A DNA stretch of 64,000 bases, from contig CAWBOS010000011.1 of assembly GCA_963790475.1 (NCBI GenBank), positions 128,001 to 192,000 on the forward strand, read 5' to 3'. Under the pieces are notes generated by a model. That model did not search any database. It was not told the DNA's origin and saw only the letters and a list, made by a program, of their open reading frames with translations. The translations under genes and the position numbers were made by a program. Below, piece by piece: positions 24,059-50,586 of this stretch (its first letter is position 1; the number at the start of each line of letters is the position of its first letter). Source of the DNA: an uncultured delta proteobacterium. Its GTDB lineage: Bacteria > Desulfobacterota > RBG-13-43-22.

Positions 24059-24201
24059 TTAGCCCTTCAACGATGCATAGTCCTTAATGGCCAATTTCTT
24101 TTTCCGATGTGAAAGATAGGCTTTGTGATTTCTCATTTGGATCCAGTGTACGAGTTCCAAGGTGGTCTGGATGGTAAATTTCCGCAAAGTCAACACATAT
24201 T

Positions 24202-25624: not shown

Positions 25625-25631
25625 ATATTGT

Positions 25632-27308: not shown

Positions 27309-27605
27309 ATGATCAAAGAGAAAAAGAAGTATACCCCCGAGTTTAAGATGGATGCCGTACGTTTGGTAACCGAGCAGGGGTACAAAACGACAGAAGCCGC
27401 CCGGAATTTAGGAATCCATCCCGGTGTATTGAACCGCTGGAAACAACAATTGGCCTCTGATGGGAAGAATGCCTTCCCCGGCAAGGGGCATCTGATCCCG
27501 GAAAAGGAAGAACTGCAGCGACTCCGGAAGGAAAACCAGCGGCTGAGAATGGAGCGTGACATCTTAAAAAAGGCCACGGCCTTCTTTGCCAAAGAGTCGA
27601 GGTAA
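27309..27605 (+). CDS. IS3 transposase OrfA
   Basis: Highly similar to 18213-18509. Confidence 0.92.
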   Translation: MIKEKKKYTPEFKMDAVRLVTEQGYKTTEAARNLGIHPGVLNRWKQQLASDGKNAFPGKGHLIPEKEELQRLRKENQRLRMERDILKKATAFFAKESR

Positions 27606-27652
27606 GATACGACTTTGTCCGGCAGCAACAGAAGGCCTATCCCGTAACCGTT

Positions 27653-28471: not shown

Positions 28472-28498
28472 CCCAGTGTCCATTTTTACTTGACCAGA

Positions 28499-34066: not shown

Positions 34067-34186
34067 GTCTGAAATCCTAAATTGTCTCTGCAGGAACCAG
34101 GGGCGTTGTTGAATTAGTTGAATTGTGACAAACGGCGTAGAGCTGTTTGGTCTATCTAGTCTGTTGGTTGATCTAATTGATCCAGG

Positions 34187-34306
34187 CTATTGGGTTTGGG
34201 TCAGATACCAAGCGTAGGTATCTTTGATGCCGTTAACAAAATCTACTTTGGGAATCCAGCCTAAATCACGAATCTTCCCAATATCCAACAATTTTTGAGG
34301 GGTACC
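34187..34306 (-). pseudogene. Orphan second 3' end of a GDP-fucose synthase
   Basis: [39 protein letters not shown]. Confidence 0.75.
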
Positions 34307-34577
34307 GTGTAATCCGGGACATCGGTTATAAGTTGCATAACTCGTACTTGGCGCCTTGGTTAGGAGAAAGCTTGAACCGCTAAGGCGCTAAGGGCGCGAA
34401 GGGGGCGCTAAGTTAGCCTGCGGATTCTGATCTGATTATGATAAAGAACTTTTTGGCACGGATTACACGGATGGACACGGCTACTCTCTGTCATTTCTCA
34501 ATAAAACGGGTACTCGTTTTATTGAGACCGGCTGTCCGCCAAGGGGCGGAGACAGAAAAAAGACTTGCAACTGCCCG

Positions 34578-35649
34578 TTCACGTGGTCTGGGAGAGATAC
34601 CAGGCATAGGTGCTTTTTATACCTTCTTCAAAATTTAATTTAGGGGTCCAGCCTAATTCTTTGAGTTTACTTATATCCAAAAGTTTTTGAGGGGTGCCAT
34701 CGGGTTTGGTGGAATCAAAGACAATTTCAGCTTCGGGATAGAACTATATCCCGGACCATTTCGGCCAATTCTTTAATGGTTTGATCTTCTCCTATTCCCA
34801 CATTGATATGATTCGCATCTTCCCAGTTTTCCATAATAAATGTACATGCATCGGCTAAATCATCCACATGAAGGAATTCGCGGCGGGCGGAGCCGGTGCC
34901 CCAAATAGTGACCTTAGGTCCGTCTTTTTGGTTCATTTGGTTTATTGGGTTTATTTTGTCATTTGATCGTGTTGAATTATTTACTGTTTGAAGTTTTCGG
35001 GAAGAGGGCCAAAAATTGCTTCGTCCCGCTGGAGGCCTTCCCAGTCACTCTGGGCAGCAAGTTTAGCCAGGTGAAATTTACGGATCAGGGCCGGGAGCAC
35101 GTGGGAACTGATCAGGTCAAAATTATCGTTCGGCCCGTAGAGATTGGTGGGCATGGCTGAAATAAAATTACAGCCATACTGTTTTCGATAAGCCTGACAG
35201 AGTTTGATTCCGGCTATTTTAGCTATGGCATAAGGTTCATTGGTCGGCTCGAGGTAATTGCCGAGAAGGTATTCCTCCCGCATGGGTTGAGGGCACTCCC
35301 GGGGATAAATGCAGGAACTGCCCAGGTAAAGGAGTTTTTTTACTTTATAGAGATGGGCGGCATGAACCACAGTGGCATGGATCATCATGTTGTCGTAGAT
35401 AAACTCGGCCGGCCGGGTGGCGTTGGCCCAGATGCCGCCCACGGTCCCGGCCACCAGGAAGACGTATTCCGGGCGGTTGGCCTTGAACCAATAGTTGACG
35501 GCCGCCTGGTCGCGCAGATCAAGTTGGTCTCGGGAGGCGGTCAGCAGGTTGGTATGGCCGGCCTTCTCCAGGACGTGGAGGATGGCCGAGCCGACAAGGC
35601 CGCGATGGCCCGCAACATAGATGCGGGCGGATTTAGGGATGGAGGTCAT
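34578..35649 (-). pseudogene. fcl: GDP-L-fucose synthase, interrupted (stop at 34981, frameshift ~34740)
   Basis: [55 protein letters not shown]. Confidence 0.85.
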
Positions 35650-35729
35650 AACGCAATTCCTCTTTTCTGAATGGTCACTATTTATATTTCAAAGTTCAAT
35701 GCTAAAAATTCAAAGGTAAATCAAGTTCC

Positions 35730-36815
35730 TCAATATCCTCTTCGCTTCACTTTTTCAAGATCGGATCTGACCATCATGCGGGCTAATTGATCAAACTTTA
35801 CTTTGGGTTCCCAGCCCAACTTCTTTTTAGCTTTCATCGGGTTTCCCATGAGGATATCGACCTCCGTCGGCCGATAATAAATTGGGTCAATACGAATAAT
35901 AATGTCTCCTGGTTGAAGCTGAGATCCTGTTAGTTCAAGGTTGTCGGACATAAAACTGGTAATTATGCCGACCTCTTCGACACCGGAATTCTGCCACTCG
36001 ATTTCCATCCCCAATTCACTGAAGGCTACTGAAATAAATTCCCTAACGCTGTGACTCTCTCCGGTGGCAATCACATAGTCCTCGGGTTGATTCTGCTGTA
36101 GCATGAGCCACATGGCTTCTACATATTCAGGGGCATATCCCCAATCTCTCTTGGCATCCAGATTCCCCAGGGTTAAGCAGTCCTGAAAACCCGTCCGGAT
36201 TCGGGCTGCGGCACGGGTGATCTTTCGGGTAACAAAAGTTTCACCTCGACGAGGGGATTCGTGATTAAAGAGAATCCCGTTGCAGGCGAAAATATTATAG
36301 GCTTCCCTATAATTGATCACAATCCAGTAGCCATACACCTTGGCCACACCATAAGGAGATCTTGGATAAAAAGGAGTCGTCTCCGATTGTGGTATTTCCA
36401 AGACTTTGCCGAAAAGTTCACTGGTCGAGGCCTGGTAGAAACGGGTATTCAAACCAATTTCCTTTATAGCATCCAGAAATCTCAAAGTGCCCACGGCATC
36501 CACTTCTGCCGTGTATTCTGGAACTTCAAAGGAAACCCGGACATGACTTTGGGCGGCCAGATTATAAATCTCATCAGGCTGAACCCGCTCCAAGATACGA
36601 TTCAGATTGCTGGAATCAGTCAGATCCCCATAATGGGTAAACAGTTTTTTGTCGAAAATTTCAGGATTGTTGTAGAGATGGTCAATCCGGGCGGTATTGA
36701 AGGAGCTACTCCGGCGAATAATCCCGTGGACTTCATAGCCTTTATTAAGGAGCAGTTCGGTTAAATAGGACCCGTCTTGGCCGGTGATGCCGGTGATTAG
36801 AGCAACCTTAGGCAC
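35730..36815 (-). CDS. gmd: GDP-mannose 4,6-dehydratase
   Basis: [45 protein letters not shown]. Confidence 0.96.
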
Positions 36816-36922
36816 TTAGATTACCTCGGATTAGCATCAGGGGAAAGGGGGACGTTCTTTCCGAAATTGAATTTTATCTGTTCATGGTGTTTCATGAAAC
36901 TAACTTGAACCGCGAAGGTGGC

Positions 36923-37067
36923 TTAGGTCAATCGGGTGCGAAAATAGCCGATGGTCTCCTGCAGCCCTTCTTCCAACTCCACGTCAGGCCCCCAGCTCAA
37001 ATATTTTTGGGCGAGGGTAATGTCGGGTTTTCGTTGGATCGGGTCGTCCTGGGGCAGGGGCTTTTTT
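36923..37067 (-). pseudogene. 3' tail of UDP-glucuronate decarboxylase (uxs-like), copy 1; further copies at 41967-42108 and 44392-44543
   Basis: [41 protein letters not shown]; no 5' part in the window. Confidence 0.8.
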
Positions 37068-37234
37068 GAGCCCGGCCGTCCGCCGGGGGCGGAACTAAAA
37101 AAAAAGCAAAAGACAAAGACATTTTTGGCACGGATTACGCGGATGGACACGGTTACTACCTTTCAATTCTCAAGAAATCGGGGAAGCGATTTCTTGAGCA
37201 CTGCCGTCTGCAGGAGCGGAATATGAAATGTTCC

Positions 37235-37468
37235 TTAAGTATTAATAAGGAACGAGAGATACCTTTCAACCGATAGACCGATAACTTTCATGTTATTCCT
37301 TATGATGAATACCGGAATTTCTTTATATTTTGGGATGACGACCGGGCGTTTAGCGCCGGGGAAATGATAAACCAGATGATCGCCCTGGGTTCGAACATAG
37401 GAACAACCGGCCGCTTCAAATATTTTAACCTGCGTCCGGTAGTCGGTGGGTTTGATTCCAGACGTCAT
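37235..37468 (-). CDS. hicA: HicA-family toxin
   Basis: RTQGDHLVYH..RPVVIP. Confidence 0.8.
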   Translation of the reverse strand: MTSGIKPTDYRTQVKIFEAAGCSYVRTQGDHLVYHFPGAKRPVVIPKYKEIPVFIIRNNMKVIGLSVERYLSFLINT

Positions 37469-37734
37469 TATATGGCGACTTCTATCGGGGTAAAACCAAC
37501 CAGCTCTTTTCTAATAGAAAAAATTCCTTGATTTTCATCGAACCCGGCCTCCTGTAGGAGGTTTCCCAACGTTCCAATCTTTTGAGCCTCTTCCAGATTG
37601 ATTAATATAACTTCCCCCAGATTCTTTTTAGCCTGATCGATCGTTTCTCCGCAGGAGGCTATATCGAGCTCCGGACAATAGGAGACATACATATTTCCTT
37701 CTTTCCATAATTCTTCCGTCAGTTTAAGCTTCAT
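37468..37734 (-). CDS. hicB: HicB-family antitoxin
   Basis: YVSYCPELDIASCGETIDQAKKNL. Confidence 0.85.
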   Translation of the reverse strand: MKLKLTEELWKEGNMYVSYCPELDIASCGETIDQAKKNLGEVILINLEEAQKIGTLGNLLQEAGFDENQGIFSIRKELVGFTPIEVAI

Positions 37735-38251
37735 AGACCTCTCCTATTTCCTAAAATTCTTAGTCTATTATACTCCATTTAGGAACTAATGGGAAGAGAA
37801 CAGGTATTTTCTGTCTGGTCCATATGGTCGATTGGGTTCATTGAGTCCATTGAGTTGCTTGGGTTTGTCGGGTTGTTCAGATGCTCATAGCTGATAGCTC
37901 ATTGGAAAACCAGGAAACAATTTTTTGGCACGGGTCCGGCTGGGCCGGACACACGGATGGATACGGTTAGTGCTAAGCTTTTCTCCAGAAGTCAGGCAGG
38001 TGATTTCAGGAGACCGGCTGTCCGCCGGGGACGGAAAAGAGACAAATAGAAAAGATAGAATCTATTCTTGGCACGGATTTCACGGATGACACGGCCAACC
38101 ACTTGGCTAATCAAGAACTCGGGGAGCCGATTTCTTGAGGACTGCCGTCCACCGCGGACGGAAAAGAGACAAATACAAAAGCTAAAGGAATTTTTTGGCA
38201 CGGATTACGCGGATGGACACGGTTACCAACTCAAACTTCTTCAGAAATCGG

Positions 38252-38650
38252 CTAATCGATTTCTGAAGACCGGTTGTCTGCCGAAGCCGGAGTTAAGACT
38301 TTTCGTTTGATATCAGCTCGTTCCCCGAAGTTGATCAATAGCCCTACCTCCAGGCCGGTGGCCTTCAAGTAATTAACCAACTGGGTCTCATGGGCCGGAT
38401 GGAGTTCTTTAACTGATTTGAGTTCCAGGATTATCCGGTCTTCCACCAGGATATCAACTAAGTATTCCCCGACGACCATGCCGTCATAAGAAACTTGGAT
38501 GGGAGTTTCCCTGAATGCCTTCAGGCCGTTCTTTTCCAGTTCGATGAGAAGAGCATTCTGGTAGACATTTTCCAGAAAGCCAAAGCCCAGGGTTTTGTGG
38601 ACCTTATAGACGCATTGGATGATCCGGCCGGTTATGTCCTGGTGTTTCAT
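38252..38650 (-). CDS. GxxExxY protein (PD-(D/E)XK-like), copy 1
   Basis: LGFGFLENVY, DILVEDRIILELKS, QLVNYLKATG..GLLINFG. Confidence 0.9.
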   Translation of the reverse strand: MKHQDITGRIIQCVYKVHKTLGFGFLENVYQNALLIELEKNGLKAFRETPIQVSYDGMVVGEYLVDILVEDRIILELKSVKELHPAHETQLVNYLKATGLEVGLLINFGERADIKRKVLTPASADNRSSEID

Positions 38651-38821
38651 TTTATTGACAGGCAGTAAATTAAGTTAAAGAAATTTTGGCACGGATTACG
38701 CGGATGGACACGGCCAACTGGGCATGGAGCATAGAGCATAGGGCATGGAGCAACAAACCGGCAGAGGGCCTCTTGGCATAGAGCATAGAGCATGGAGCAT
38801 GGAGCAAAAAGCCAAGGGCAA

Positions 38822-38936
38822 CATCACTTGAGGGATCGTTGGAACATGGTGATCTGCCTACAAAGCCTGTCCAGTTCACTTAGAAGATTTTCCAACATTT
38901 CTTTGGACAAAAGGGATCTTCTTTCCAATAGGATCA
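38822..38936 (-). pseudogene. 3' tail of a four-helix-bundle (23S IVP-like) protein; second tail at 41045-41122
   Basis: ILLERRSLLSKEMLENLLSELDRLCRQITMFQRSLK*, followed by the 7-mer ctatgct tract; family assignment from recall. Confidence 0.55.
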
Positions 38937-38939
38937 ATA

Positions 38940-39257
38940 TCAATGTTCTTCCGATTTCATGGATAGAATTCTTTTCAGGGCGATTTGATAGACCTCCAGG
39001 TCTTCTCTCTTGTCGATAGCAATCACCCTGATAATGTTTTCAATTTCCTTATAAACAATCCTAATGCGCTTCTTGTCGGCGTATAATTTAAAATATCCTT
39101 CAAGGTTTATTCCAGCTTTGTTACCCAGAGGATTTCCGTACTTTGGATTCAGCTCCAGCTTGACAAGCTGTTTCAAAACTTGCTTTCTTACACTGCCTTC
39201 CAGCCGGTTAAAGTCTGCCTGGGCCTCCAGTGTCAGTTCAACCTTCCAGGTCGGCAC
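38940..39257 (-). CDS. RelE/ParE-family toxin
   Basis: WKVELTLEAQADF, GNPLG, RIRIVY, IAIDKREDLEVY. Confidence 0.85.
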   Translation of the reverse strand: MPTWKVELTLEAQADFNRLEGSVRKQVLKQLVKLELNPKYGNPLGNKAGINLEGYFKLYADKKRIRIVYKEIENIIRVIAIDKREDLEVYQIALKRILSMKSEEH

Positions 39258-39456
39258 GAGTCAATCCCTCAGCCTTTAATAAGTCGTCAAGATTTACTGT
39301 TGATTCACCGTCTTTGCGTTCTTCAATGATTCCGGCCAAGTAGGCGTGTTCAAGAATGTCCTTCGCTTTCTCAGTCCGTTCCCACTCATCGAAAGGTATA
39401 ATTGCCGCAGTCCTCTTGCCTTGTTGATCTGTGATAAATTGTATTTCCATTACCAA
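39238..39456 (-). CDS. Antitoxin partner of RelE
   Basis: QFITDQQGKRTAAIIP (Phd-like); overlaps the toxin start. Confidence 0.7.
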   Translation of the reverse strand: MVMEIQFITDQQGKRTAAIIPFDEWERTEKAKDILEHAYLAGIIEERKDGESTVNLDDLLKAEGLTRADLEG

Positions 39457-39586
39457 CCTCCATCTAATTAAACGGTGTCCTGTTTACCTCGAATTTGTAT
39501 AAAAGTTGATCGAGCATAGGAACAACCGGCCGCTTCAAATATTTTAACCTGCGTCCGGTAGTCGGTGGGTTTGATTCCAGACGTCA

Positions 39587-39853
39587 TTATATGGCGACTT
39601 CTATCGGGGTAAAACCAACCAGCTCTTTTCTAATAGAAAAAATTCCTTGATTTTCATCGAACCCGGCCTCCTGTAGGAGGTTTCCCAACGTTCCAATCTT
39701 TTGAGCCTCTTCCAGATTGATTAATATAACTTCCCCCAGATTCTTTTTAGCCTGATCGATCGTTTCTCCGCAGGAGGCTATATCGAGCTCCGGACAATAG
39801 GAGACATACATATTTCCTTCTTTCCATAATTCTTCCGTCAGTTTAAGCTTCAT
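39587..39853 (-). CDS. hicB: HicB-family antitoxin, identical duplicate (its HicA is truncated at ~39516)
   Basis: Identical to 37468-37734 within the ~650-bp duplication 37397-38046 / 39516-40165. Confidence 0.85.
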   Translation of the reverse strand: MKLKLTEELWKEGNMYVSYCPELDIASCGETIDQAKKNLGEVILINLEEAQKIGTLGNLLQEAGFDENQGIFSIRKELVGFTPIEVAI

Positions 39854-40474
39854 AGACCTCTCCTATTTCCTAAAATTCTTAGTCTATTATACTCCATTTA
39901 GGAACTAATGGGAAGAGAACAGGTATTTTCTGTCTGGTCCATATGGTCGATTGGGTTCATTGAGTCCATTGAGTTGCTTGGGTTTGTCGGGTTGTTCAGA
40001 TGCTCATAGCTGATAGCTCATTGGAAAACCAGGAAACAATTTTTTGGCACGGGTCCGGCTGGGCCGGACACACGGATGGATACGGTTAGTGCTAAGCTTT
40101 TCTCCAGAAGTCAGGCAGGTGATTTCAGGAGACCGGCTGTCCGCCGGGGACGGAAAAGAGACAAATACAAAAGCTAAAGGAATTTTTTGGCACGGATTGC
40201 ACGGATGGACACGGTTACTGCCTTTCAATTTCTCAAGAAATCGGAACTCGATTTCTTGAGGACTATACTGTCCCCGAGTACCCGGAAAAAATCTAATACA
40301 AAAGCTAATAAACATTTTAGGCACGGGTCCGCTGGGCCGGACACACGGATGGACACGGTTAATGCCAAGCTTTTCTCCAGAAATCAGGAAGCTGATTTCA
40401 GGAGACCGGCTGCCCGCCGGGAGCGGAAAAAAATGCAAAAGACAAGGGTTTCCTTTTGGCACGGATGACGCGGG

Positions 40475-40861
40475 TTACACGGTTAAAGGATCTTGGGACG
40501 GAGTTAAGACTTTTCGTTTGATATCAGCTCGTTCCCCGAAGTTGATCAATAGCCCTACCTCCAGGCCGGTGGCCTTCAAGTAATTAACCAACTGGGTCTC
40601 ATGGGCCGGATGGAGTTCTTTAACTGATTTGAGTTCCAGGATTATCCGGTCTTCCACCAGGATATCAACTAAGTATTCCCCGACGACCATGCCGTCATAA
40701 GAAACTTGGATGGGAGTTTCCCTGAATGCCTTCAGGCCGTTCTTTTCCAGTTCGATGAGAAGAGCATTCTGGTAGACATTTTCCAGAAAGCCAAAGCCCA
40801 GGGTTTTGTGGACCTTATAGACGCATTGGATGATCCGGCCGGTTATGTCCTGGTGTTTCAT
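40475..40861 (-). CDS. GxxExxY protein, copy 2
   Basis: Identical core, different C-terminal tail. Confidence 0.9.
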   Translation of the reverse strand: MKHQDITGRIIQCVYKVHKTLGFGFLENVYQNALLIELEKNGLKAFRETPIQVSYDGMVVGEYLVDILVEDRIILELKSVKELHPAHETQLVNYLKATGLEVGLLINFGERADIKRKVLTPSQDPLTV

Positions 40862-41123
40862 TTTATTGACAGGCAGTAAATTAAGTTAAAGAAATTTTGG
40901 CACGGATTGCACGGATGGACACGGATACTGGGGGCATAGAGCATAGAGTATAGGGCTAACAAACCGGCAGAGGGCCTATTGGCAAAGAGCATGGAGCAGA
41001 GGGCCTATTGGCATAGGGCAGAGAGCATAGGGCAAAGAGCAAAATCATTTAAGGGACCGTTGGAACATGGTGATCTGTCTGCAAAGCCTGTCCAGTTCAG
41101 TTAGAAGATTTTCAGACTTCCAG

Positions 41124-41555
41124 TTATTCAATATTTTTGGCCCTATCGGACAATCCCCCACTAAACGGGGTTTGATTCTCCCATCTCCCGGCCTCTTCGA
41201 TAACTTCCCGGATTGAAGGTTTTTCAGAGGCAACCACCTTTGTTTGTGTATGCTTGTGGTGGGGAAATGTTTCAAATTCTGCGAAATGAGGTGTGTTATC
41301 ATAACGAAATAAAGTATGATTATCTAAATTCTGAAAATGATATCGATAACCCAAGGGGGATATTGATTCCTCGATCACGACAACCGCCTCGCTTATCTCT
41401 ATCGTTGCCCCACTCTTAAAGCGGATCCGTAAACGAAGGTTAATCCTCTTTGAACTTAAAACCTCCTCCTCATATCTTTCAACATAAACACCTGCCAAAC
41501 GAGAAACAACATCCTCAATCTCCCTCAAATATTGTTTAAGAGAATCATGCAGCAT
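41124..41555 (-). CDS. DUF6516 (TumE-like) putative toxin
   Basis: YRYHFQ, FRYDNTPHF..TFPHHKH. Confidence 0.75.
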   Translation of the reverse strand: MLHDSLKQYLREIEDVVSRLAGVYVERYEEEVLSSKRINLRLRIRFKSGATIEISEAVVVIEESISPLGYRYHFQNLDNHTLFRYDNTPHFAEFETFPHHKHTQTKVVASEKPSIREVIEEAGRWENQTPFSGGLSDRAKNIE

Positions 41556-41775
41556 GCTGTAGCCGCTCTTCTATCTCCCCGCGCATTGCCAAGTAATGCT
41601 GATAGTCATTTGACCACTCAACAAATTTTTCGGAATCCTCCAGATTCCCCTTGGTGTATTGATCAAAGAAATCCTCGGAATCCATTCCATATCCACTTTC
41701 AAATATCGCTAGACGCTTTGCCAATGCCACTAGCGCATCGACTCCCGTACTGTATTGGATGGTCTTTTTTTTCAT
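41545..41775 (-). CDS. Putative antitoxin (TumA-like) partner
   Basis: FESGYGMDSEDFFDQY..G.L.D..KFVEW. Confidence 0.7.
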   Translation of the reverse strand: MKKKTIQYSTGVDALVALAKRLAIFESGYGMDSEDFFDQYTKGNLEDSEKFVEWSNDYQHYLAMRGEIEERLQHAA

Positions 41776-42222
41776 GTCCCCGATCTTTCTTTTAAAATTT
41801 ATTCAATTTTCCCTATCCTAATAAATTGTAGATCAGTTCTCCTGAAAGGTCAAAGGGAAAAGCGGCTGGGCACGGTCACCTGGCAGAAAAGGGGGACGTT
41901 CATTCCGAAATTGGATTGTATATGTTCATGGTGTTTCATGAAACTAACTTGAACCGCGAAGGTGGCTTAGGTCAATCGGGTGCGAAAATAGCCGATGGTC
42001 TCCTGCCCTTCTTCCAACTCCACGTCAGGCCCCCAGCTCAAATATTTTTGGGCGAGGGTAATGTCAGGTTTTCGTTGGATCGGGGCGTCCTGGGGCAGGG
42101 GCTTTTTTGAGCCCGGCCGTCCGCCGGGGGCGGAACTAAAAAAAAAGCAAAAGACAAAAACATTTTTGGCACGGATTACGCGGATGGACACGGTTACCAA
42201 CTCAAACTTCTTCAGAAATCGG

Positions 42223-42621
42223 CTAATCGATTTCTGAAGACCGGTTGTCTGCCGAAGCCAGAGTTAAGACTTTTCGTTTGATATCAGCTCGTTCCCCGAA
42301 GTTGATCAATAGCCCTACCTCCAGGCCGGTGGCCTTCAAGTAATTAACCAACTGGGCCTCATGGGCCGGATGGAGTTCTTTAACTGATTTGAGTTCCAGG
42401 ATTATCCGGTCTTCCACCAGGATATCAACTAAGTATTCCCCGACGACCATGCCGTCATAAGAAACTTGGATGGGAGTTTCCCTGAATGCCTTCAGGCCGT
42501 TCTTTTCCAGTTCGATGAGAAGAGCATTCTGGTAGACATTTTCCAGAAAGCCAAAGCCCAGGATTTTGTGGACCTTATAGACGCATTGGATAATCCGGCC
42601 GGTTATGTCCTGGTGTTTCAT
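42223..42621 (-). CDS. GxxExxY protein, copy 3
   Basis: Three substitutions relative to copy 1. Confidence 0.9.
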   Translation of the reverse strand: MKHQDITGRIIQCVYKVHKILGFGFLENVYQNALLIELEKNGLKAFRETPIQVSYDGMVVGEYLVDILVEDRIILELKSVKELHPAHEAQLVNYLKATGLEVGLLINFGERADIKRKVLTLASADNRSSEID

Positions 42622-42935
42622 TTTATTGACAGGCAGTAAATTAAGTTAAAGAAATTTTGGCACGGATTGCACGGATGGACACGGCCAATCGGCATAGAGC
42701 AAAGGGCATAGAGCATAAAGTATAGGGCTAACAAACCGGCATAGGGTTTCTCAAGAACTCGGGGAGCCGATTTCTTGAGCCCGGCGATCCTCCGGGGGCG
42801 GAACAAAAAAAATGCAAAAGACAAGAGCTTATTTTTGGCACGGGTCCGGATGGCCGGACACGCGGATGGACACGGTTAACCACTGGGTCACTTTTGTCAG
42901 TGGGCGGAGCCTCTGATCCTCGGGACGGCGGCCAG

Positions 42936-43196
42936 TTAAACCCCCACTTTTTCTTTTAACCAGTCGTTGATCAAACTGTCTTCATTGATCCGTAATTTTT
43001 TGGCCTGTTTTTTAATTATTTCATACAATCCATTCTCAATTCCTACATACTTCTTCTTTTTTAATTTAAATCGAAGCCCTTTTACTTCCTCAGTATCTGG
43101 AAATTCAGTAAAATCATGGCGGTCCCAAAATTCCGAGGCCTGATCTATTGACATGTTCTCCATTTTTTTACTTTTTTGCATATCTTTTTCTTTCAT
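42936..43196 (-). CDS. CopG/BrnA-like antitoxin; upstream BrnT reduced to its last ~20 codons (43168-43227)
   Basis: ASEFWDRHDFTEF..LINDWLKEK; overlapping remnant IVTARDMNKNERKRYAKK*. Confidence 0.7.
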   Translation of the reverse strand: MKEKDMQKSKKMENMSIDQASEFWDRHDFTEFPDTEEVKGLRFKLKKKKYVGIENGLYEIIKKQAKKLRINEDSLINDWLKEKVGV

Positions 43197-43495
43197 TTTT
43201 GTTCATATCCCTGGCGGTCACAATCAAGATTACACGGATTGCACGGTTCTTTCAAAATTAAGGCTGTCTCTCGCCCGCTTCCTTCGTTCGCTCAAGCGCG
43301 CAGAGGGCGCAGAGCGGGACCTTTTATCTTGGCCTGAATCTTTGAGAAGGAGATTCCGGCAAGCCGGCTCAGCCTTCGGCGGCTAACCGGGTTAAGATAA
43401 AAAAACCTTTTGGCACGGATTACACGGATAGACACGGTTAACCACTTGGGTAATCAAGAACTCGGGGAGCCGATTTCTTGAGGACTGCTGTCAAG

Positions 43496-43870
43496 TCAAG
43501 TCCGCATGCTGACACTTCCGGGTTGCGGCTTCCGGACACGAAATTTCGTACTCAAGGCAATAACAATCGCTCCGGATTCCAAATCCCGGCTATGCCGATC
43601 CATGACATCACGCAAAAGCTTTATTCTCTCAAAGCGCGGCAAGTTTTCCAAACGTAGGACACCACAATGAGGCTCACCTTGTCGCCATATCATTTCCTCG
43701 AAATCGTTATCTGTCGTAATAATAATCCGGTGTTCCTTTATGGCCCAATTCAAAATCTCATTGTCACTCATCTTGGGGTCCTTCTGACCGACTTCGACTA
43801 TGTCATGCCCCTGGTGAATCAACCATTGAGCCACAACCCCACTTGCGTTAACATCCAACAAGAAGTTCAT
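43496..43870 (-). CDS. DUF5615 PIN-like toxin
   Basis: FLLDVN, GHDI, SDNEIL, RIIITTDNDF, HCGVLRL. Confidence 0.85.
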   Translation of the reverse strand: MNFLLDVNASGVVAQWLIHQGHDIVEVGQKDPKMSDNEILNWAIKEHRIIITTDNDFEEMIWRQGEPHCGVLRLENLPRFERIKLLRDVMDRHSRDLESGAIVIALSTKFRVRKPQPGSVSMRT

Positions 43871-43875
43871 GAAGA

Positions 43876-44115
43876 TTAGCCAACTGCGACACGATCAAAA
43901 ACATCTTCTCGGGCAACCATATGATGCGCATAGAGCAAAACAGCACGGAAATCATCCGGCTCCAGTTGGGGATAGTCTTGAAGGATCTCTTCTTGTGTAG
44001 CTCCTTTGGCCAATAGCTCCAACACCATTTCGACAGATATCCTCAGACCTCGAATAAGAGGTTTTCCACAAAGAACCTCCTTATTAAAGGTGATACGATT
44101 TAATAGATCCTGCAT
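43876..44115 (-). CDS. DUF433 antitoxin
   Basis: RITFNKEVLCGKPLIRGLRISV..EEILQDYPQL; start MQDLL after RBS gggagg. Confidence 0.88.
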   Translation of the reverse strand: MQDLLNRITFNKEVLCGKPLIRGLRISVEMVLELLAKGATQEEILQDYPQLEPDDFRAVLLYAHHMVAREDVFDRVAVG

Positions 44116-44900
44116 TGTTGCCCTCCCAAAATATTTATTATTTGAAAGTTTATAGGGGTACAACCAAATTGTCAAGGAAGGCTTCTTTTTGTCACGGGTC
44201 CGGATGGGCCGGACACTAGGATGGACACGATTAATCACTCAGACTTCTACAGAAATCGGCTAATCGATTTCTGTAGACCACGTTCTTCATTCTGTTCAGT
44301 TATTCTGTTCGTCTGTGCGGTCTATTTGGTTTGTTTCGTCAGGGCCTAAGTCAAAGACAATCATATTGAATCGGGAGATGGTCGTCAAAAATCAGGCCCA
44401 AGCAGTCAATCGGGTGCGAAAATAGTCGATGGTCTCCTGCAGCCCTTCTTCCAACTCTACGCCAGGCCACCAATTTAAATATTTTTGGGCCAGGGTAATG
44501 TCGGGTTTTCGTTGGATCGGGTCGTCCTGGGGCAGGGGCTTTTTTGAGCCCGGCCGTCCGCCGGGGGCGGAACTAAAAAAAAAGCAAAAGACAAAGACAT
44601 TTTTGGCACGGATTGCACGGATGGACACGGCCAATCGGCATAGAGCAAAGGGCATAGAGCATAGAGTATAGGGCTAACATACCGGCATAGGGTTTCTCAA
44701 GAACTCGGGGAGCCGATTTCTTGAGCCCGGCGATCCTCCGGGGGCGGAAAAGAGGCAAATACAAAAGCTAAAGGAATTTTTTGGCACGGATTGCACGGAT
44801 GGACACGGTTAAAGGCCCTTGAGTTTCTTCTGAAATCGGGCTTCCGATTTCAGAAGAAAAATCCCCCTCCTGGCGGAGGAACGCAATAAAAGGATTTTCT

Positions 44901-45110
44901 TTAAGCGTAGGCCAGCTTTCCTTTGGGTTCCGGGGTTTCTCTCCCCAATTCCTGAGCTGTTTTAAGCCATTCGGGAATTACTCCCTGGGCATTTTCTACT
45001 GCTTCCCCGTAGGTTTTTCCATCGGCCATACACCCGGGAAGCTCAGGAACTTCCACAATAAAGCACCCATCCTCAGCGCTCCAATAAACAACCAGTTCGT
45101 ACTTAAACAT
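44901..45110 (-). CDS. hicB: HicB-family antitoxin
   Basis: YWSAEDGCFIVEVPELPGCMADGKTY. Confidence 0.88.
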   Translation of the reverse strand: MFKYELVVYWSAEDGCFIVEVPELPGCMADGKTYGEAVENAQGVIPEWLKTAQELGRETPEPKGKLAYA

Positions 45111-45364
45111 CTATGACCTCACTGTGAATTTTATATTGGAGAATGATCTTTCTAATTTGTTTGACCTGATAAGCCTTTGCCTTGCCGTCCCTCAAAGGTT
45201 GGAGGTTAATGATCTCGGGAATTCCGCTTCGATAAAAGATATAAAGGTCACCATTTATTCTCTCGAAGAATCCCAAACCGGTCAAGAGCCTTCTGATATC
45301 ATTTAAATCGTATGTTGTTATCGGCTAACCCGGAGAGAACGCTGTTCAATAGTTTTGTTTCCAT
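45103..45364 (-). pseudogene. HicA-family toxin, frameshifted
   Basis: METKLLNSVLSGLADNNIRF / DIRRLLTGLGF..EIINLQP..KAKAYQVKQ; +1 shift near 45303. Confidence 0.7.
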
Positions 45365-45952
45365 CAATCCTACCTTAATATTTTAGGCTACTGGATTGGG
45401 ATAGGTACCAATTATAAGTGTTTTTGATCCCTTCTGCAAAACTTATTTTCGGCTATCCTTGTCCCTGTGGGTTTGGGGTCAAATCTTTATGCTTACATTT
45501 GCTTAGCGTCATAGGAAGGGACGCTCGTTCTGAACGTGCTTGAACCAGGGACAGGTCTATTTTCTTGGCATTGAATGATCTTAGCTCATAGCTCATTACT
45601 GATAGATCATTGGAAAAACAGGAAACAATACTCAAAGGTCTGTTCGGTCTATCTGGTCTATTTGGTTTGTTGGGTCTGTTTGGTCAGTTAAAAGACTGCA
45701 AAGATAAGCGCTTCTTTTTGGCACGGATTACACGGATTTCACGGTTCTTTCAAAATCAAAACTTTCTCTCGCCCGCTTCCTTCGGTCGCTCAAGCGCGCA
45801 GAGGGCGCTGAGAGGGGCGGGGTTTTCTTTTTCATTGCGGTTGAGAGGGACCGCAATGAAAAGCAAGCTCGGCCTGCGGCATTTTCCAGTCAGTTTTGTC
45901 TGTTTGGTTGATCTGGCTTGTTTTGGTCTAAACGAACCAGGATATGGAATAA

Positions 45953-46090
45953 TTATTTCCTGGATTTTGCTTTCTTATATATTCCCTCCCGTGAACCAAT
46001 AACCGTAACCGTTATCGTCCTCCCCTCAATGCAATAGACAATTCTATATTCCGGCCGTCGTCCAAAATGATAAGAGATATCCCTCCATGG
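45953..46090 (-). pseudogene. RelE-like toxin C-terminal remnant
   Basis: YHFGRRPEYRIVYCIEGRTITVTVIGSREGIYKK; N-terminal half missing. Confidence 0.55.
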
Positions 46091-46092
46091 AG

Positions 46093-46308
46093 TTATCGAT
46101 ATTCCTTCTGCAACTCTGCCAGACTTATAAATTTTTTCCCGGCTTTTCTATCCTCGCCGGCCTCCCGGCCTCTTTGGTTGACATAGCGGATGAACCACTC
46201 ATCCTCTTTAAGCTTTAAATATTCGACAAAATCGAAAACCTCTTTAATCTTCTTCTCCGGGAGGTCCTGGATATCATTTATAAGCTTTTGTTTTAAAGAA
46301 TAAGCCAT
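46093..46308 (-). CDS. DUF2281-like antitoxin
   Basis: IQDLPEKKIKEVFDFVEYLK; RBS aaggag. Confidence 0.7.
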   Translation of the reverse strand: MAYSLKQKLINDIQDLPEKKIKEVFDFVEYLKLKEDEWFIRYVNQRGREAGEDRKAGKKFISLAELQKEYR

Positions 46309-46702
46309 GGCTTATCTCTCCTTAGTTTTTCTTCTAATTTATCATATTCTTTTTAATTTTTCCAGTTGTCCATTTCATTCAGTTATTGTCTCTCCTGCCC
46401 TATCTCGTCTGGTTGGCATAGGGCAAAGGGCGATCTAATCTGTTTGGTCTATCTGGTTTGTTGGGTTGCTTTGGTTTATTGGGTTTATTGGGTTTGTCGG
46501 CTTGTTCATAAGTTCATAACTGATAGCTGTGAATAGCTCATAGCTGATAGCTCATAGCGTAAAAGTCAAATGTTTTTTGGCACGGATTACGCAGATGGAC
46601 ACGGTTTAATTCTGGTCTGGTCTGTTTGGTCGATTAGGTTCATTGGGTTTGTTGGGTTTGTCGGGTTGTTCCGGGGAAAGACGGCATGGTCGGGGGTGAA
46701 CC

Positions 46703-46912
46703 TTAGGCTGCTTGGAGTTTTTTATCCATCTGTTTAATGACGTCTTTAAATAGTTGGGAGGCTTGAAAAACCTCAACCCCGATCAGGTTACCGGCCTTGT
46801 CTAATTCCATATTTACGTTCGGACTAAGCTCCACTACTTCCTCTTCCTGTCCTTCCCTGCCCAGATACAAGATATCCTCTCGATCATCATAAAAAACCTT
46901 AAATCCTTCCAT
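46703..46912 (-). CDS. DUF2283 protein (putative antitoxin)
   Basis: YDDREDILYL..ELDKAGNLIGVEVFQAS. Confidence 0.8.
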   Translation of the reverse strand: MEGFKVFYDDREDILYLGREGQEEEVVELSPNVNMELDKAGNLIGVEVFQASQLFKDVIKQMDKKLQAA

Positions 46913-47189
46913 TACAGACTCCTCCATCTACCGCTGGTTATCCTCTTCCCTTTTTGCCCTTCTTTTAAGGGATGAATGGTTATAATTTTAATCCAGCTTT
47001 CTTCTTCTTTATAAGCTATCATAATTTCCCTTTACCATAAAGTTCTTCCGAGGCCACGGCAACATGATGCCCGCTCAAAATATCCAGATACTTTTCTTTT
47101 GAACTTTCAAAAACTTTTCGGGGAAGGTTTTTATCTATTTTCCTTAAAACCAGTCTGTTTTCAAGGTGTTTAGAATATCTTATTTCCAT
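46912..47189 (-). pseudogene. DUF4258-like putative toxin, frameshifted
   Basis: MEIRYSKHLENRLVLRKI... / IMIAY..KIITIHPLK..SGRW; shift near 47030. Confidence 0.6.
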
Positions 47190-47443
47190 TTTTTGTACGG
47201 CGCTTCAAAAATATGGTTTAGGGTCAAATCTTTATCCTTTGCATTTGCTCAGCGTCACAGGAAGGGACGTTCGGTCTGAACGTGGTCTATTCAGTCTGTT
47301 TCGTCGCATAGGGCAGAGAGCATAGATCAAAGGGCACAGGGCATAGAGCATAGGGCCAACAAACCGGCATTGGGGTTATCAAGAATCGAGCAATCGATTT
47401 CTTGTGGACTGATGTCCGCCGGGGGCGGAACAAAAAGAAAGGG

Positions 47444-47620
47444 TTATAATAGTGAGAGAAATTCTTCTCGTGACAATCCTGCCTGCTCCAGAATTGCCCT
47501 TAAGGTTCCTTTCGGTAATACTTTTCTACTTCCCTTACCTCTTTTGGGGGCATCCAGGAAGCCTCCTTTTCGTAAAGCCTGAATGACCTCCCTTGAAGAA
47601 AGGGATGGCATTCTGGTCAT
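47444..47620 (-). pseudogene. HicA-family toxin with in-frame internal deletion
   Basis: MPSLSSREVIQALRKGGF..RGKGS|RKVLPKGTLRAILEQAGL; the GSH histidine and following strands are missing. Confidence 0.65.
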
Positions 47621-47856
47621 TAAACAACAGCCTCCAAATGAGCCGTAAATTTTTCTTTAGTTGTCAGGCTTTCTTCGATATCCTCAATCAGATCGAGTTC
47701 TTTGGCGTTGTCCAGATATAATTCCACCGCTTCTTTTAAATTATTGACCGCCTCTTCAAACGTATCCCCACAACTGGCCACCCCTAGTTCAGGACACTTG
47801 GAAACAAACCCTTCCGTCTCTTTCCAGACGACGGCTGTATATTCAAAAATTTTCAT
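47620..47856 (-). CDS. hicB: HicB-family antitoxin
   Basis: FVSKCPELGVASCGDTFEEAVNNLKEAVELY. Confidence 0.87.
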   Translation of the reverse strand: MKIFEYTAVVWKETEGFVSKCPELGVASCGDTFEEAVNNLKEAVELYLDNAKELDLIEDIEESLTTKEKFTAHLEAVV

Positions 47857-48282
47857 AGGGATTCCTTTTACCTATTAATTGGGGTTGTTGGATTTGTTTT
47901 GTTTGATCAATGTTTTTTATATTCAAGATAAAGTCACATAACTAATTATAATAACATAGATTGAGTCTGGTTTCAAGTGTTCCTTTGTTGAGGCTGTTCG
48001 GTCAATCTAGTCTATTTGGTCTGTTTAGTCTGTATGGTCTATAGGGTTCCTTGGGTCCATTGGGTTTGTTGGGTTTGTTGGGTTGTTCAGAAGCTCAAAG
48101 CTGATAGCTGGATTTAGCTCATAGTGCAAAGTCGATAGCGCACAGGAAAAATCAAAGAAGCGGAAAGGTTTCTTTTTGGCACGGATGACATGGATAGCAC
48201 GGTTCTTTCAAAATCAAAACTTTCTCTCGCCCGCTTCCTTCCGTCGCTCAAGCGCGCGGAGGGCGCAGAGAGGACCCATTCT

Positions 48283-48413
48283 CAGACCTTTGAAAAAGTC
48301 TCCTATTACGTCATACCGGCGAAAGCCGGTATCCAGAACCAATTAAAAACACTGGATTCCGTGTCAAGCACGGAATGACGAAAAGGAAGTTGGCATAATA
48401 ATTCAAAGGTCTC
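48283..48413. mobile_element. 131-bp MITE with IS5-type ends carrying a palindromic core, TSD ATTCT
   Basis: cagacctttgaa...ttcaaaggtctc; internal gtcataccggcgaaagccggtatccag..ctggattcc. Confidence 0.82.
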
Positions 48414-48877
48414 ATTCTCTTGGCCTGAATCTTTGAAAAGAAGATTCAAACCAACCGGCTCAGCCTTCGGCGGCTAACCGGGTTAAGATAAAAAAACCTT
48501 TTGGCACGAATGAGTTTAGCTCATAGCTCAAAGCTGATAGGCTCATTGGAAAAGTCAGAAAAGCTTAACGACTTTTTTGGCACGGATTTCACGGATGGAC
48601 ACGGTTAACCTCTGGTCTGTTTGGTGATTTGGTCTATCTGGTCTGCCGGGTCTATTCGGAAGCTCATTGCTGATAGCTCAAAGCTCATAGAAAAACCAGG
48701 GCTTCAGGGCAAGCTACCGCTCCTTCGATTCCGGGAAAGTAAGACCGGTCGATATGGAAGCTCATAGCAAGATAGCTCATAACAAGAAACAGGATTCAAG
48801 GATTCAAGGGGTCGAGGATTCAAGATCACAGAAAAACAGAATCCCCATTCATCTTGTTCAACTCACAGTGAAACCGA

Positions 48878-50315
48878 TCAAACGGCGCCTAAACCTCTTA
48901 AAGCCGCAGGAATAGTCAATACCAGAATCTTGAGATCCAGCCAGAATGACCACTGATCAATATATTGCATATCCATTTTCATCCACTCGGAAAAAGAGAC
49001 ACTGCAGCGGCCGTTGATCTGCCAGAGGCATGTCATTCCGGGTCGGACGCTGAAGCGGCGGCGCTGTCAGTCCTGGTCGAAACCGTTGTAATCTCGAACG
49101 GGCAGGGGTCTCGGGCCGACCAGGCTCATCTCCCCCTTCAGCACGTTGATCAACTGGGGCAGTTCGTCGATACTGGTTTTCCGTAAAAATTTCCCGATGC
49201 CTGTGATCCGGGGATCGTCCTTGATCTTGAAGGCCGGCCCGTCTACCTCGTTCAATGTTTCCAGGGCCGCGATCCTGGCCTCCGCGTCGGCCACCATGGT
49301 CCGGAATTTATAGAGCCGGAAGATCCTCTTGTGGAGCCCGACCCGGTCCTGGACGAAAAAAACAGGCCCCGGGCGAGGTCAGTTTGATCAACAGGGCTGC
49401 AGCCAGGAAAAACGGCGAGAGCACAATCAGCAGGAGCAGAGAGCCGATGAAATCCAGCATATACTTAACCACCACGGGAGTCCCCTCCATCCGCCCGGTG
49501 GAGACGGTGATAAAAGCATCCTCCTCGTTCTCTTCCGGCCGGACCCGGCCCAGTTTCAGGTTGAAGAAGTCCGAAGGGAAGCGGACCAGGATGCCCTGCT
49601 TTTCGCAGTCGGACACGATCTGAGAGATCTGCTGGTAATAGGACTTGATGGGCAGGCAGATGACCACTTCGTCGATAACCGCGGTGCGGAGCAGGGCCGG
49701 CAGGCTGTTGAAGTCGGCCACCAGGTGGTGGCCCGATTTCTCGAAACCCTTCATCCCGGGGCCTTCGTCCACAAAGCCCATGATCCGGTAACCGAACTCC
49801 GGGGTATTCAAAACCTTGTCCACAAAGCGCAGGGCCCGGGAACTGGTGCCGACGAGAAGTATATTTCGCAGGTTCCGTCCCCGGTTCCTGATCTTTTTCA
49901 GCCCGTACTTCAGTATAAGGCGAGCGGCAATGGTCCCCAGGGCAGAGGACCCCCAGAAAACGTCCAGGAAGAGACCGTTGATCAGCCGTATATTGAAGAA
50001 GATTGAGGCGAGCAGCAACACCAAGGTCCCGAGGCTGACGGCCTTGAAGATCTGCCGCATATCTTCCTGACGGGTTGTGAGCCGACGGGAATGGTAGAGC
50101 TTGAAAAAAGAGAAAAGGCCGTGCCAGACCAGAAGGAAGGCCACGCAGATCAGCAGGTTCGAAGCCTTGATCCGCATGGCCAGGACCCGTTCAAAGGAGA
50201 CCCCCTTCATCTCCTGGGAGGTGACCCAGGTGGCGAAAAGGAAATAGCCGGCCAAGGCTGCCAGGTCAAACAGCTTGAGAGCTTTTAAAAGGATTTTACG
50301 GCGGAATGTGCCCAT
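48878..50315 (-). pseudogene. Priming undecaprenyl-phosphate glycosyltransferase (WcaJ/CpsE-like), frameshift plus nonsense
   Basis: [35 protein letters not shown]; extra base ~49368; TGA in place of Trp at 49067. Confidence 0.88.
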
Positions 50316-50332
50316 GGGTTAGCTCATAATTC

Positions 50333-50475
50333 GAGAGCTTTGAAAAAAATCCCCTTTTGCCCAATCTCAGTGTCAGACTCAAATTTTAATCCTCGAAATA
50401 CTAAATGTATTACTGTGGTTAAAATTTTCATCTTCCTTGACCTTGAACAAAGATTGAACATTTTTCAAAGCTCCC
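50333..50475. mobile_element. ~142-bp MITE copy 3, just upstream of the priming transferase start
   Basis: Close homologue of 11786-11927; near-TSD aattc/agttc. Confidence 0.82.
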
Positions 50476-50586
50476 AGTTCATTATAGGTTTATTTCAAAG
50501 CACGTTTCGCTCAAGAAGCCAAGAGCTCAAGGTTTACTTTTTCTTTTTTCCTTCGTGTCCCTTATGCCTTGGCAGTAAAACAGGCC

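Follow-up and report, generated by a model that had tools for sequence, protein, structure and literature searches.

Co-oriented repeat arms and re-assorted toxin-antitoxin and GxxExxY cassettes in a polysaccharide operon of an uncultured delta proteobacterium

We analyzed a stretch of 64,000 nt (the window; positions 128001-192000 of contig C11, in a genome of 6.34 Mb and 20 contigs) from an uncultured delta proteobacterium, and in particular its interval 36845-48860, where small gene cassettes alternate with a structured repeat inside a polysaccharide operon. With moderate confidence, we read this interval as an island of toxin-antitoxin (TA) and GxxExxY genes that was scrambled by recombination, in which single repeat arms act as portable homology and cassettes acquire new neighbors through that homology. 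The arms would derive, to judge by their sequence, from a family resembling miniature inverted-repeat transposable elements (MITEs), which transposes as inverted pairs in sister genomes. In the genome studied here the arms are confined to the polysaccharide locus, those of the array lie in one orientation, and their flanks were re-assorted both within the genome and between relatives. The genes mentioned below are open reading frame (ORF) readings made in this analysis, and the genomes of relatives are metagenome-assembled genomes (MAGs).

The array is hosted by a minus-strand operon, between the stop of a priming sugar transferase gene (48878) and gmd (36815). As the initial annotation had listed, it comprises 10 TA-type modules, three GxxExxY (PDDEXK_3) genes and three dehydratase-gene tails, all on the minus strand. 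In gene order, with both borders, the genes are the following:

48878-50315, minus strand, priming sugar transferase (CoA_binding_3 and Bac_transf), upstream border of the array, in three frame pieces (Pfam profile parts 1-38, 57-113 and 132-178 of 179)
47444-47856, minus strand, module of HicB-like (47620-47856) and HicA-like (47444-47620) genes; PF15919/PF24113 and PF07927; promoter-like site 47976-47948
46703-47189, minus strand, module of orf56 (47019-47189, no family) and DUF2283 (46703-46927); PF10049
46093-46308, minus strand, single DUF2281 antitoxin-like gene; PF10047, 26.9 bits against a cut-off of 26.5
44901-45285, minus strand, orf60 (45103-45285, no family) and HicB-like gene (44901-45110); PF15919, PF21748
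44405-44560, minus strand, dehydratase ("uxs") tail, copy 3; 95.6% identity to 36927-37152
43496-44238, minus strand, module of DUF433 (43876-44238) and DUF5615/PIN-like (43496-43870) genes; PF04255, PF18480
42936-43196, minus strand, single CopG antitoxin-like gene; PF12441
42261-42621, minus strand, GxxExxY/PDDEXK_3 gene, copy 3
41967-42115, minus strand, dehydratase ("uxs") tail, copy 2; 94.0% identity to 36844-37194
41124-41775, minus strand, module of TumA (41545-41775) and TumE (41124-41555); NF045776, 121.6 bits against a cut-off of 100; PF20126
40499-40861, minus strand, GxxExxY/PDDEXK_3 gene, copy 2
39510-39853, minus strand, duplicate HicB-like gene with the first ~26 HicA codons, cut at 39510 (37391-38094 = 39510-40214, 98.4%)
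38940-39456, minus strand, RelB-like gene (39238-39456) and 105-aa partner (38940-39257, no family match); PF18506
38290-38650, minus strand, GxxExxY/PDDEXK_3 gene, copy 1; PF13366 146.5 bits, TIGR04256 144.9 bits
37235-37734, minus strand, HicB-like gene (37468-37734, no Pfam match) and HicA (37235-37468); PF07927; promoter-like site 37795-37767
36923-37075, minus strand, dehydratase ("uxs") tail, copy 1, adjoining gmd upstream; 68% identity over 44 aa to the C-terminus of L248 1379-2311
35730-36815, minus strand, gmd, downstream border of the array; PF16363, 507.5 bits

The type II TA families HicA, HicB, RelB-like, TumE/TumA, CopG, DUF5615/DUF433, DUF2281 and DUF2283 were found over or near their cut-offs; four small partner ORFs gave no family match, and three modules are single genes. 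Promoter-like sites precede most modules (29, against 16.1 +/- 3.5 in shuffled sequences, counting consensus matches only). The tails correspond to the final ~45 codons of a gene for an SDR sugar-nucleotide dehydratase. The name "uxs" comes from the likeness of copy 1 to a dehydratase-family ORF of that class elsewhere in the genome, for which none of the NCBIfam models reached its cut-off.

The window contains the repeat core GGCACGGAT 23 times (22 on the plus strand, one on the minus strand), whereas shuffles average 0.38 and never exceed 2. About 23 co-oriented units had been reported for the interval; the co-orientation stands, the count is 22, and other units lie outside it. These 22, all on the plus strand, consist of 16 exact cores, five variants with a small hairpin in place of the middle 9-mer, and one remnant with two 9-mers. 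A profile of the 34-nt core, run over the whole genome, gave 26 matches on the window's contig, all within 9951-48605 of the window; elsewhere it gave five, all with E >= 1.4 and thus none significant. Likewise, the hairpins, heptamer tracts and other intergenic modules were not found in the genome outside the window. The units are listed below, with the clusters to which their left (L) and right (R) flanks belong in brackets:

48579-48604, plus strand, unit core (three 9-mers)
48178-48202, plus strand, unit core
46579-46604, plus strand, unit core
45720-45744, plus strand, unit core
44783-44808, plus strand, unit core (L8/R17)
44605-44630, plus strand, unit core (L6/R14)
44191-44230, plus strand, variant core with inner hairpin
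43412-43437, plus strand, unit core (L15/R7)
43225-43246, plus strand, remnant with two 9-mers
42835-42875, plus strand, variant core with inner hairpin
42659-42684, plus strand, unit core (L9/R14)
42168-42193, plus strand, unit core (L6/R8)
40899-40924, plus strand, unit core (L9/R9)
40458-40482, plus strand, unit core
40316-40358, plus strand, variant core with inner hairpin
40189-40214, plus strand, unit core (L8/R6)
40040-40085, plus strand, variant core with inner hairpin
38688-38713, plus strand, unit core (L9/R9)
38197-38222, plus strand, unit core (L8/R8), at the start of a tandem of three ~127-nt units that is free of genes
38070-38094, plus strand, unit core (L8/R7)
37921-37966, plus strand, variant core with inner hairpin
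37127-37152, plus strand, unit core (L6/R6)
34442-34564, plus strand, unit outside the interval (hairpins and core 34455-34480), between fcl and a flippase-like gene
13858-14145, plus strand, two units (cores 13865 and 14025), duplicated at 15998-16285 (cores 16005 and 16165)
9943-10141, both strands, the only inverted core pair of the window (9956 plus, 10124 minus), between a VPEID-CTERM-type gene and exosortase/CAAX-protease genes

Each unit is an arm of ~110-130 nt with two hairpins, three CACGGAT 9-mers and an A-run. Read in the direction of the genes, it presents a short GC-rich hairpin, a hairpin of 11-16 bp, ~16 nt, the 9-mers CCGTGTCC-ATCCGTGNA-ATCCGTGCC and 5-6 A; many copies carry a T-rich stretch past the A-run. 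When folded, the perfect 11-16-bp hairpin stands beside the unpaired tandem 9-mers. This hairpin shows compensating variants (AAATCGG/CCGATTT here, AAAACGG/CCGTTTT in relatives). The 7-mers are conserved while the two letters between them vary, a pattern that would suit a protein-binding repeat and not merely recent copying.

Some further observations on the unit can be added. A module of ~90 nt adjoins three of the units (43228-43318, 45726-45816 and 48184-48276); it combines CACGGAT 9-mers with a CGCAGAG-like stretch of the type that flanks another GxxExxY gene in the genome. At Rfam gathering thresholds the only match in the window was the tRNA at 61921-61994, and the repeat matched none of the known RNA families. 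A sigma-54 promoter was considered, since the core starts with TGGCAC, and was rejected by eye: the spacing from GG to GC is 2 bases below that of the consensus, and the unit opposes the genes. None of four 16-nt repeat strings was found in a literature search that left most subscription journals outside.

Evidence for recombination comes from the duplications and from the exchange of neighbors. Self-comparison reproduced the duplicated tail and GxxExxY blocks and the mosaic at 41890-42800 that had been described previously. The tail block 36844-37194 equals 41888-42235 (94.0%) and its part 36927-37152 equals 44405-44630 (95.6%), the GxxExxY blocks are mutually 92.8-96.3% identical, and the HicB block 37391-38094 equals 39510-40214 (98.4%). 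Within the mosaic, 41888-42235 resembles 36844-37194, 42103-42716 resembles 38131-38746, and 42648-42843 resembles 44593-44789. These duplicated blocks (92.8-98.4%) are real paralogs of different ages. That they were created by mis-joined repeats during assembly is very improbable. The divergence of 1.6-7% between copies argues against this, the junctions are distinct, independent metagenome contigs show the same sort of unit-cassette joints, and a 357-nt contig of run X1 spans 39883-40239, including core 40189, with zero differences. An assembly fault would find some support in indel-like frame breaks, such as base 49367, which is absent from an X1 contig and whose removal lengthens the frame from 336 to 416 aa, and in the contamination of the genome, given as 9.68. 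Contigs of runs X3 and X5 join the orf56/DUF2283 cassette, at 46694, straight to a unit core; with a likeness of 90-95% they belong to other organisms and serve only as examples of a cassette beside a unit. Contigs of these two runs also pile up on 47775-48876. The Logan contigs on 34000-50500 are short and of low depth, so that long-range structure, habitat and abundance lie beyond their reach and the uncovered parts are uninformative.

Neighbor swapping was followed by clustering the 60-nt left and right flanks of 22 cores. The tail flank L6 meets R6, R8 and R14; the common leader flank L8 meets R7, R8, R6 and R17; and L9, the upstream flank of GxxExxY, meets R9 and R14. A full four-gamete set is present (37127 L6R6, 42168 L6R8, 38197 L8R8 and 40189 L8R6), which bears out the claim that neighbors change at the repeat. 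The switch points had also been placed in the repeats. This holds for the exchanges, which are resolved at finest to the T-run and core (~35 nt), two of them (44605 against 42659, and 42168 against 38197) being bounded to the T-run and first 9-mer; it does not hold for the other ends of several blocks, which fall outside units. The HicB block (706 nt) stops inside HicA, 26 codons in (37391/39510), the tail blocks end at 36844/41888 and at 36927/44405, and among the tail copies one terminates at the stop codon and another ~80 nt beyond it. The variants of the middle 9-mer (TACG, TGCA, TACA and TTCA) track neither flank, which may reflect gene conversion or ordinary divergence at 5-7%.

According to the reading that we favor, the arms would serve as portable homology, and recombination between co-oriented arms, in the form of unequal crossing-over, gene conversion or one-sided homology-anchored events, would duplicate, delete and re-neighbor cassettes. 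An integron-type integrase would take no part in these events, and a nuclease acting on the arms, for which GxxExxY and a RAYT-like Y1 enzyme are candidates, may increase their rate. If some events were one-sided, the non-unit ends of the duplications would be explained; these same ends count against site-specific events from unit to unit alone. Several points weigh against homology as the driving force. By itself, homologous exchange leaves unexplained the one-way arms 3' of every module, the defined ends of the arms and the fact that unrelated TA modules each lie beside an arm. The core identity of ~26-35 nt is short for RecA-dependent exchange, and whole units (~127 nt) share ~78-90% identity. 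Every resolvable exchange interval spans the boundary between T-run and first 9-mer, which is compatible with one fixed crossover point. Only 8 of the 23 metagenome contigs with at least two units have all of them co-oriented, so the strict co-orientation observed here needs a cause. Finally, the short, low-depth Logan contigs gave no direct sign of ongoing recombination.

The origin of the arms was approached through relatives. Of the 21 genomes of the order in the collection, 13 contain the triplet of 9-mers. In the sister genomes it is dispersed on many contigs as inverted pairs, 120-190 bp apart at 17 of the 25 loci examined, and the pairs lie in non-coding elements of 182-250 bp with longer terminal inverted repeats (TIRs). 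Of 17 copies examined, 10 had both tips identified, and 7 of these have matching 8-bp flanks. Taken on these sequence features, the inverted-pair elements are transposed MITEs: they resemble this class in their long TIRs, 8-bp flanks and dispersal over many contigs. TIRs, target duplication and non-coding content characterize the copies of the relatives and not the units of the array. Unlike MITEs, the arms of the window are single, devoid of terminal tips, of one orientation, at one locus, and alternate with genes. The repeat had been proposed as a recombination or insertion site of an undescribed capture and shuffling system; rather than an undescribed site specific to this locus, it appears to be an arm of a MITE-like family with 8-bp duplications in sisters, its triplet being present in several phyla. 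A scan with one genome per species gave at least 120 triplet loci; among those listed, most were in Bacteroides, Prevotella and Parabacteroides, and some in Acidobacteriota-, Chloroflexota- and Pseudomonadota-type MAGs. In Bacteroidales and other phyla the triplet forms palindromic elements of ~85 bp.

Related genomes, which had been suggested for comparison, and metagenome contigs present the same units with other cassettes in similar polysaccharide loci. This suggests an arrangement that is heritable in the lineage and variable in content. The 39 metagenome contigs with the exact core of the window contain co-oriented runs as well as inverted pairs. In these contigs, with L241 as exception, TA pairs are antiparallel to the units and near DegT-like, fcl and gmd-region sequences. 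Copies of DUF5615/DUF433 with 83-91% identity are found in L207, L210, L229, L231 and L234; among those with ORFs listed, L207 has a DegT fragment with a further TA pair as downstream neighbor and L210 a PIN pair, whereas the window has CopG. Furthermore, three units of one orientation lie between Gp49/XRE, RelE/XRE-type and HicBA pairs in the sister genome G009, next to a truncated ortholog of the RAYT-like gene.

The window also contains a MITE of ~235 bp at 62018-62250, by the tRNA at 61921-61994. Its tip is the same as that of the CACGGAT MITEs of relatives, and it carries CGCAGAG-type subterminal 9-mers and a different inner hairpin. The 22-nt tip motif has 59 matches in the genome when up to 4 mismatches are allowed.

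Because the one-way arms 3' of the modules are left unexplained by homology, a dedicated nuclease system and a strand-specific insertion of units both keep some weight. The first, which we regard as possible though doubtful, would be an integron-like cassette system without integrase, in which a protein of the locus (GxxExxY or the RAYT-like Y1 enzyme) would recognize the triplet of 9-mers and cut and join at a set point ~15-30 nt beyond it, so that cassettes enter or leave in one orientation. The co-orientation of 22 of 22 units speaks for it, as do the tight unit boundaries. Almost every module has one co-oriented arm on its 3' side, and the arm ends are fairly fixed. In a profile of 129 positions, built from gene-free tandem units, two separable modules are recognized, namely the 9-mers with ~15-30 nt, and the hairpins with the spacer. 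In the window, the part of the unit after a gene begins at positions 53-74 (58-60 for four cassettes), and that before a gene extends to positions 33-61 (43-46 in six cases). Among 135 uncut matches from 39 metagenome contigs and one sister locus, the start lies at position 1 in 76 and at 59-70 in 51, and the end at 28-62 in 74 and at 119-129 in 57. From these fixed starts and ends, the repeated entity is a discrete piece of ~110 nt (hairpins, 9-mers and a short tail), with genes between pieces. This anatomy and the co-orientation belong to the evidence for the portable-homology reading as well. The GxxExxY cassette of the window lies between unit positions ~44 and ~60 with no visible loss of the unit, and the gene-free tandem units (38222-37908 and 40482-40027) resemble empty sites of such a system. 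On the other side, several block ends fall outside units, the cassettes have promoter-like sites of their own, and circles or excision products were not seen.

The GxxExxY genes bear directly on this possibility. The protein of the window exceeds the family cut-offs widely (TIGR04256, 144.9 against 35 bits; PF13366, 146.5 against 22). Residues G24, E27, Y30, D66, E76 and K78 are invariant in 26 sequences, leaving the PD-(D/E)XK signature intact. The AlphaFold2 model of copy 1 has a pLDDT of 95.8, and its nearest predicted folds are Cas4 SSO0001, alkaline/lambda-type exonucleases and the Holliday-junction resolvase Hjc; the signature and these folds favor a dedicated system. By sequence, neither GxxExxY nor the RAYT-like protein gave a meaningful match to solved structures. 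All six GxxExxY genes of the genome stand among tandem 8-9-mers, the three outside the window with other motifs (CGCAGAG-, ACAGGAT- and CACTAAG-type). In related genomes, flanking inverted repeats scoring at least 30 were found for 15 of 25 full-length genes and for 0 of 1991 control placements within those loci (maximum score 26), which likewise favors a dedicated system. Three-fold tandem 9-mers lie on both sides of most of 28 GxxExxY instances, mostly inverted inward, some direct, as in the window, and some inside-out. The CACGGAT triplets bracket the gene exactly in the Bacteroidales loci L156 and L247, another motif does so in L246, and by eye the type of motif follows the clade of the protein. 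This bracketing of GxxExxY by lineage-specific tandem 8-9-mers holds whatever the array is. In the metagenome contig L230 (53-755), a GxxExxY gene with 82% identity to that of the window is flanked inside-out by units, one upstream and one directly past the stop, followed by an IS110-like ORF.

The association between nuclease and repeat has clear limits. The initial annotation had tentatively tied GxxExxY, as a PD-(D/E)XK nuclease, to the repeat: the signature and the bracketing agree with this, and the units in genomes that lack the gene do not. Among the 21 genomes of the order, which are related and partly incomplete MAGs, 9 have both, 4 units only, 5 the gene only and 3 neither, so the co-occurrence that had been proposed as a check gave no association. 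Against a dedicated system also stand units without GxxExxY in 4 of the 13 unit-bearing genomes, in the G009 array and in 3 of the 5 Bacteroidales genomes with the repeat, as well as the direct, and not canonical inverted, arms around the GxxExxY genes of the window. The idea that GxxExxY stands beside every CACGGAT element was rejected, since 2 of the 120 triplet loci listed hold a GxxExxY ORF and 118 are gene-less. In the 2012 survey of PD-(D/E)XK proteins, the function of PDDEXK_3/GxxExxY is given as "Unknown" (PMC3424549). Our literature search for "GxxExxY", with most subscription journals and supplements outside it, found mentions and none on function. As a tentative proposal, GxxExxY proteins might be the nucleases of tiny elements spread across phyla, with arms of three tandem 8-9-mers (~CRCRGAK). 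Gene-less inverted arm pairs would be their empty target or derivative, and nuclease action on single co-oriented arms would drive the capture and shuffling of TA cassettes, without integrase, in the polysaccharide loci of this lineage.

The other candidate enzyme is encoded in the neighboring part of the window:

12133-13047, minus strand, RAYT-like Y1 (HUH) protein with C-terminal helix-turn-helix (HTH); PF01797 and HTH_23

RAYT denotes the tyrosine transposases associated with repetitive extragenic palindromic (REP) sequences. The protein scores 40.1 bits with PF01797 (cut-off 23) and 67.6 bits with NF047646, under the cut-off of 80, and its translation contains HVH and YIHLNPV stretches, which we take to be the HUH and catalytic tyrosine motifs. 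Orthologs with 50-94% identity occur in G001, G009, G007 and three metagenome contigs. Units adjoin the gene at 3 of the 4 genome loci (own, G001 and G009) and in 2 of the 3 metagenome contigs (L219 and L237). They adjoin none of the 8 loci of paralogs with ~30% identity, and this contrast supports a dedicated system. No unit was seen at the G007 ortholog (52%), a locus that is the end of a 2.2-kb contig. Of the 13 unit-bearing genomes in the order, only 4 yielded a close ortholog and nine are without, which weakens that support.

The presence of this gene nearby leads to a third, unlikely explanation, in which the mobile entity would be a ~110-nt single-strand unit similar to REP sequences or palindrome-associated transposable elements, moved by the RAYT-like HUH enzyme into the gaps between genes of a pre-existing TA island in a strand-specific manner, with shuffling as a by-product. 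IS200/IS605 single-stranded DNA transposition is strand-biased, and co-orientation would be expected from it. The defined ends in independent contigs, the conserved hairpin with compensatory variants and the inverted doublets of the relatives, which are REPIN-like (REPINs being REP doublets), agree with this explanation. On the contrary, the long TIRs and 8-bp target duplications of the relatives' copies would indicate a DDE-type and not an HUH transposase. REP sequences and RAYTs are treated in PMC3733652 and PMC5581495. The locus resembles such systems in the Y1 HUH gene beside hairpin-bearing repeats and in the inverted doublets. It differs in the protein, which has twice the usual length of a RAYT, an HTH tail and a score below the NCBIfam cut-off, in the hairpin, which has no consistent GTAG/CGTC tag, in the copies, confined to one locus and not dispersed in the genome, and in the target duplications of the relatives, which misfit HUH transposition.

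Regarding the rest of the locus, the array is preceded in the operon by genes for Wzz/GNVR, a LuxR-type protein, a PilZ protein and the priming sugar transferase, and followed by gmd, a split fcl, a flippase-like gene, a Wzy_C protein and glycosyltransferases. Deleting base 49367, as in the X1 contig, joins two pieces of the transferase, and at least one of its frame breaks may be an assembly indel. The fcl-like gene (34727-35649) is split into ORFs of 222 and 69 aa with 44 nt containing a heptamer-like tract between them, and no single-base deletion within 34900-35019 rejoined both ORFs. A repeat of ~140 nt occurs in three copies with 89-91% identity (7447-7590, 11783-11935 and 50330-50483) and also on a G001 contig. 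Each copy lies directly upstream of a gene start (an unknown ORF at 7620, an exosortase-like ORF ending at 11835, and the priming transferase), and it could be a common leader or promoter element. A 1-kb direct duplication (13502-14534 and 15642-16675, 95.1%) brackets a Gp49/XRE TA pair (14687-15378), each copy with two units and a 5' fragment of a secreted beta-helix-type ORF. Four transposase genes are present in the polysaccharide locus (20087-21928, 24400-25089, 25831-26958 and 53624-54736), three of DDE_Tnp_1 and one of the IS110 family; 24196-25626 and 25624-27073 are 85.6% alike, and an inverted duplication of 1.26 kb links 17317-18579 with 27239-28501 (86.7% identity). At 9649-11835, a small ORF with a terminal VPEID-type sorting signal (TIGR04162, 37 bits, far under the cut-off of 150) adjoins exosortase-like and CAAX-protease (Rce1-like) ORFs.

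Should the arms be nothing more than portable homology, the locus would be a natural case of a repeat family that makes an operon variable in a cassette-like manner, free of integrase. For annotators, it is useful to recognize an array that would otherwise pass for the remnant of an integron or for faulty assembly. Should a nuclease act on them, this would provide a large protein family of unknown function with a testable role and a defined DNA partner, and bacteria would have a second way to stockpile and reorder TA and similar modules, in addition to integrons and Xer-site modules.

Among known systems, the nearest in appearance are sedentary chromosomal integrons and clusters of attC sites lacking an integrase (CALINs), which, like TA modules in integrons, are described in PMC4889954 and PMC13108822. 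The array is like them in its co-oriented small cassettes rich in TA modules and in a structured repeat of ~120 nt after each cassette, homogeneous in the array and without adjacent integrase. We nevertheless consider it next to impossible that it is a canonical CALIN with unrecognized attC sites, and the integron was rejected as an explanation. In agreement with the initial annotation, no integron integrase over cut-off was found in the genome (best TIGR02249 match 105 bits against 265; matches in 14 control genomes were likewise only below the cut-off). Pairs of the attC form RYYYAAC-N35-130-GTTRRRY (R''/R' cores) numbered 0 on both strands of 36845-48860, against a shuffle mean of 2.3, and the unit folds as a perfect hairpin beside unpaired 9-mers, unlike the bulged attC stem. 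In contrast to integron cassettes, those of the window carry their own promoter-like sites, so that no common promoter is needed, and in sister genomes the repeat of the array transposes in the form of inverted-pair MITEs flanked by 8-bp duplications. Our literature searches (REPIN/RAYT/TA/cassette and TA/attC/CALIN), in which subscription journals were mostly uncovered, found no description of such an array.

Two further comparisons can be made. The pdif modules of Acinetobacter plasmids are gene modules, TA pairs included, flanked by XerC/D sites of 28 bp in alternating orientation. The array is similar in that gene modules, many of them TA, are bounded by short, putative recombination sites and would be moved without dedicated integrase, and different in that its units are all co-oriented and are not palindromic dif-like sites. 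The GxxExxY genes, in turn, recall free-standing homing-endonuclease genes and the small ORFs in inverted-repeat intervening sequences, such as those of 23S rRNA. As in these, a small nuclease gene is placed exactly between inverted arms (L156, L247 and L246) and gene-less palindromes are far commoner (118 of the 120 loci listed). The likeness concerns gene placement alone, and unlike those ORFs, the GxxExxY genes of the window lie between direct arms.

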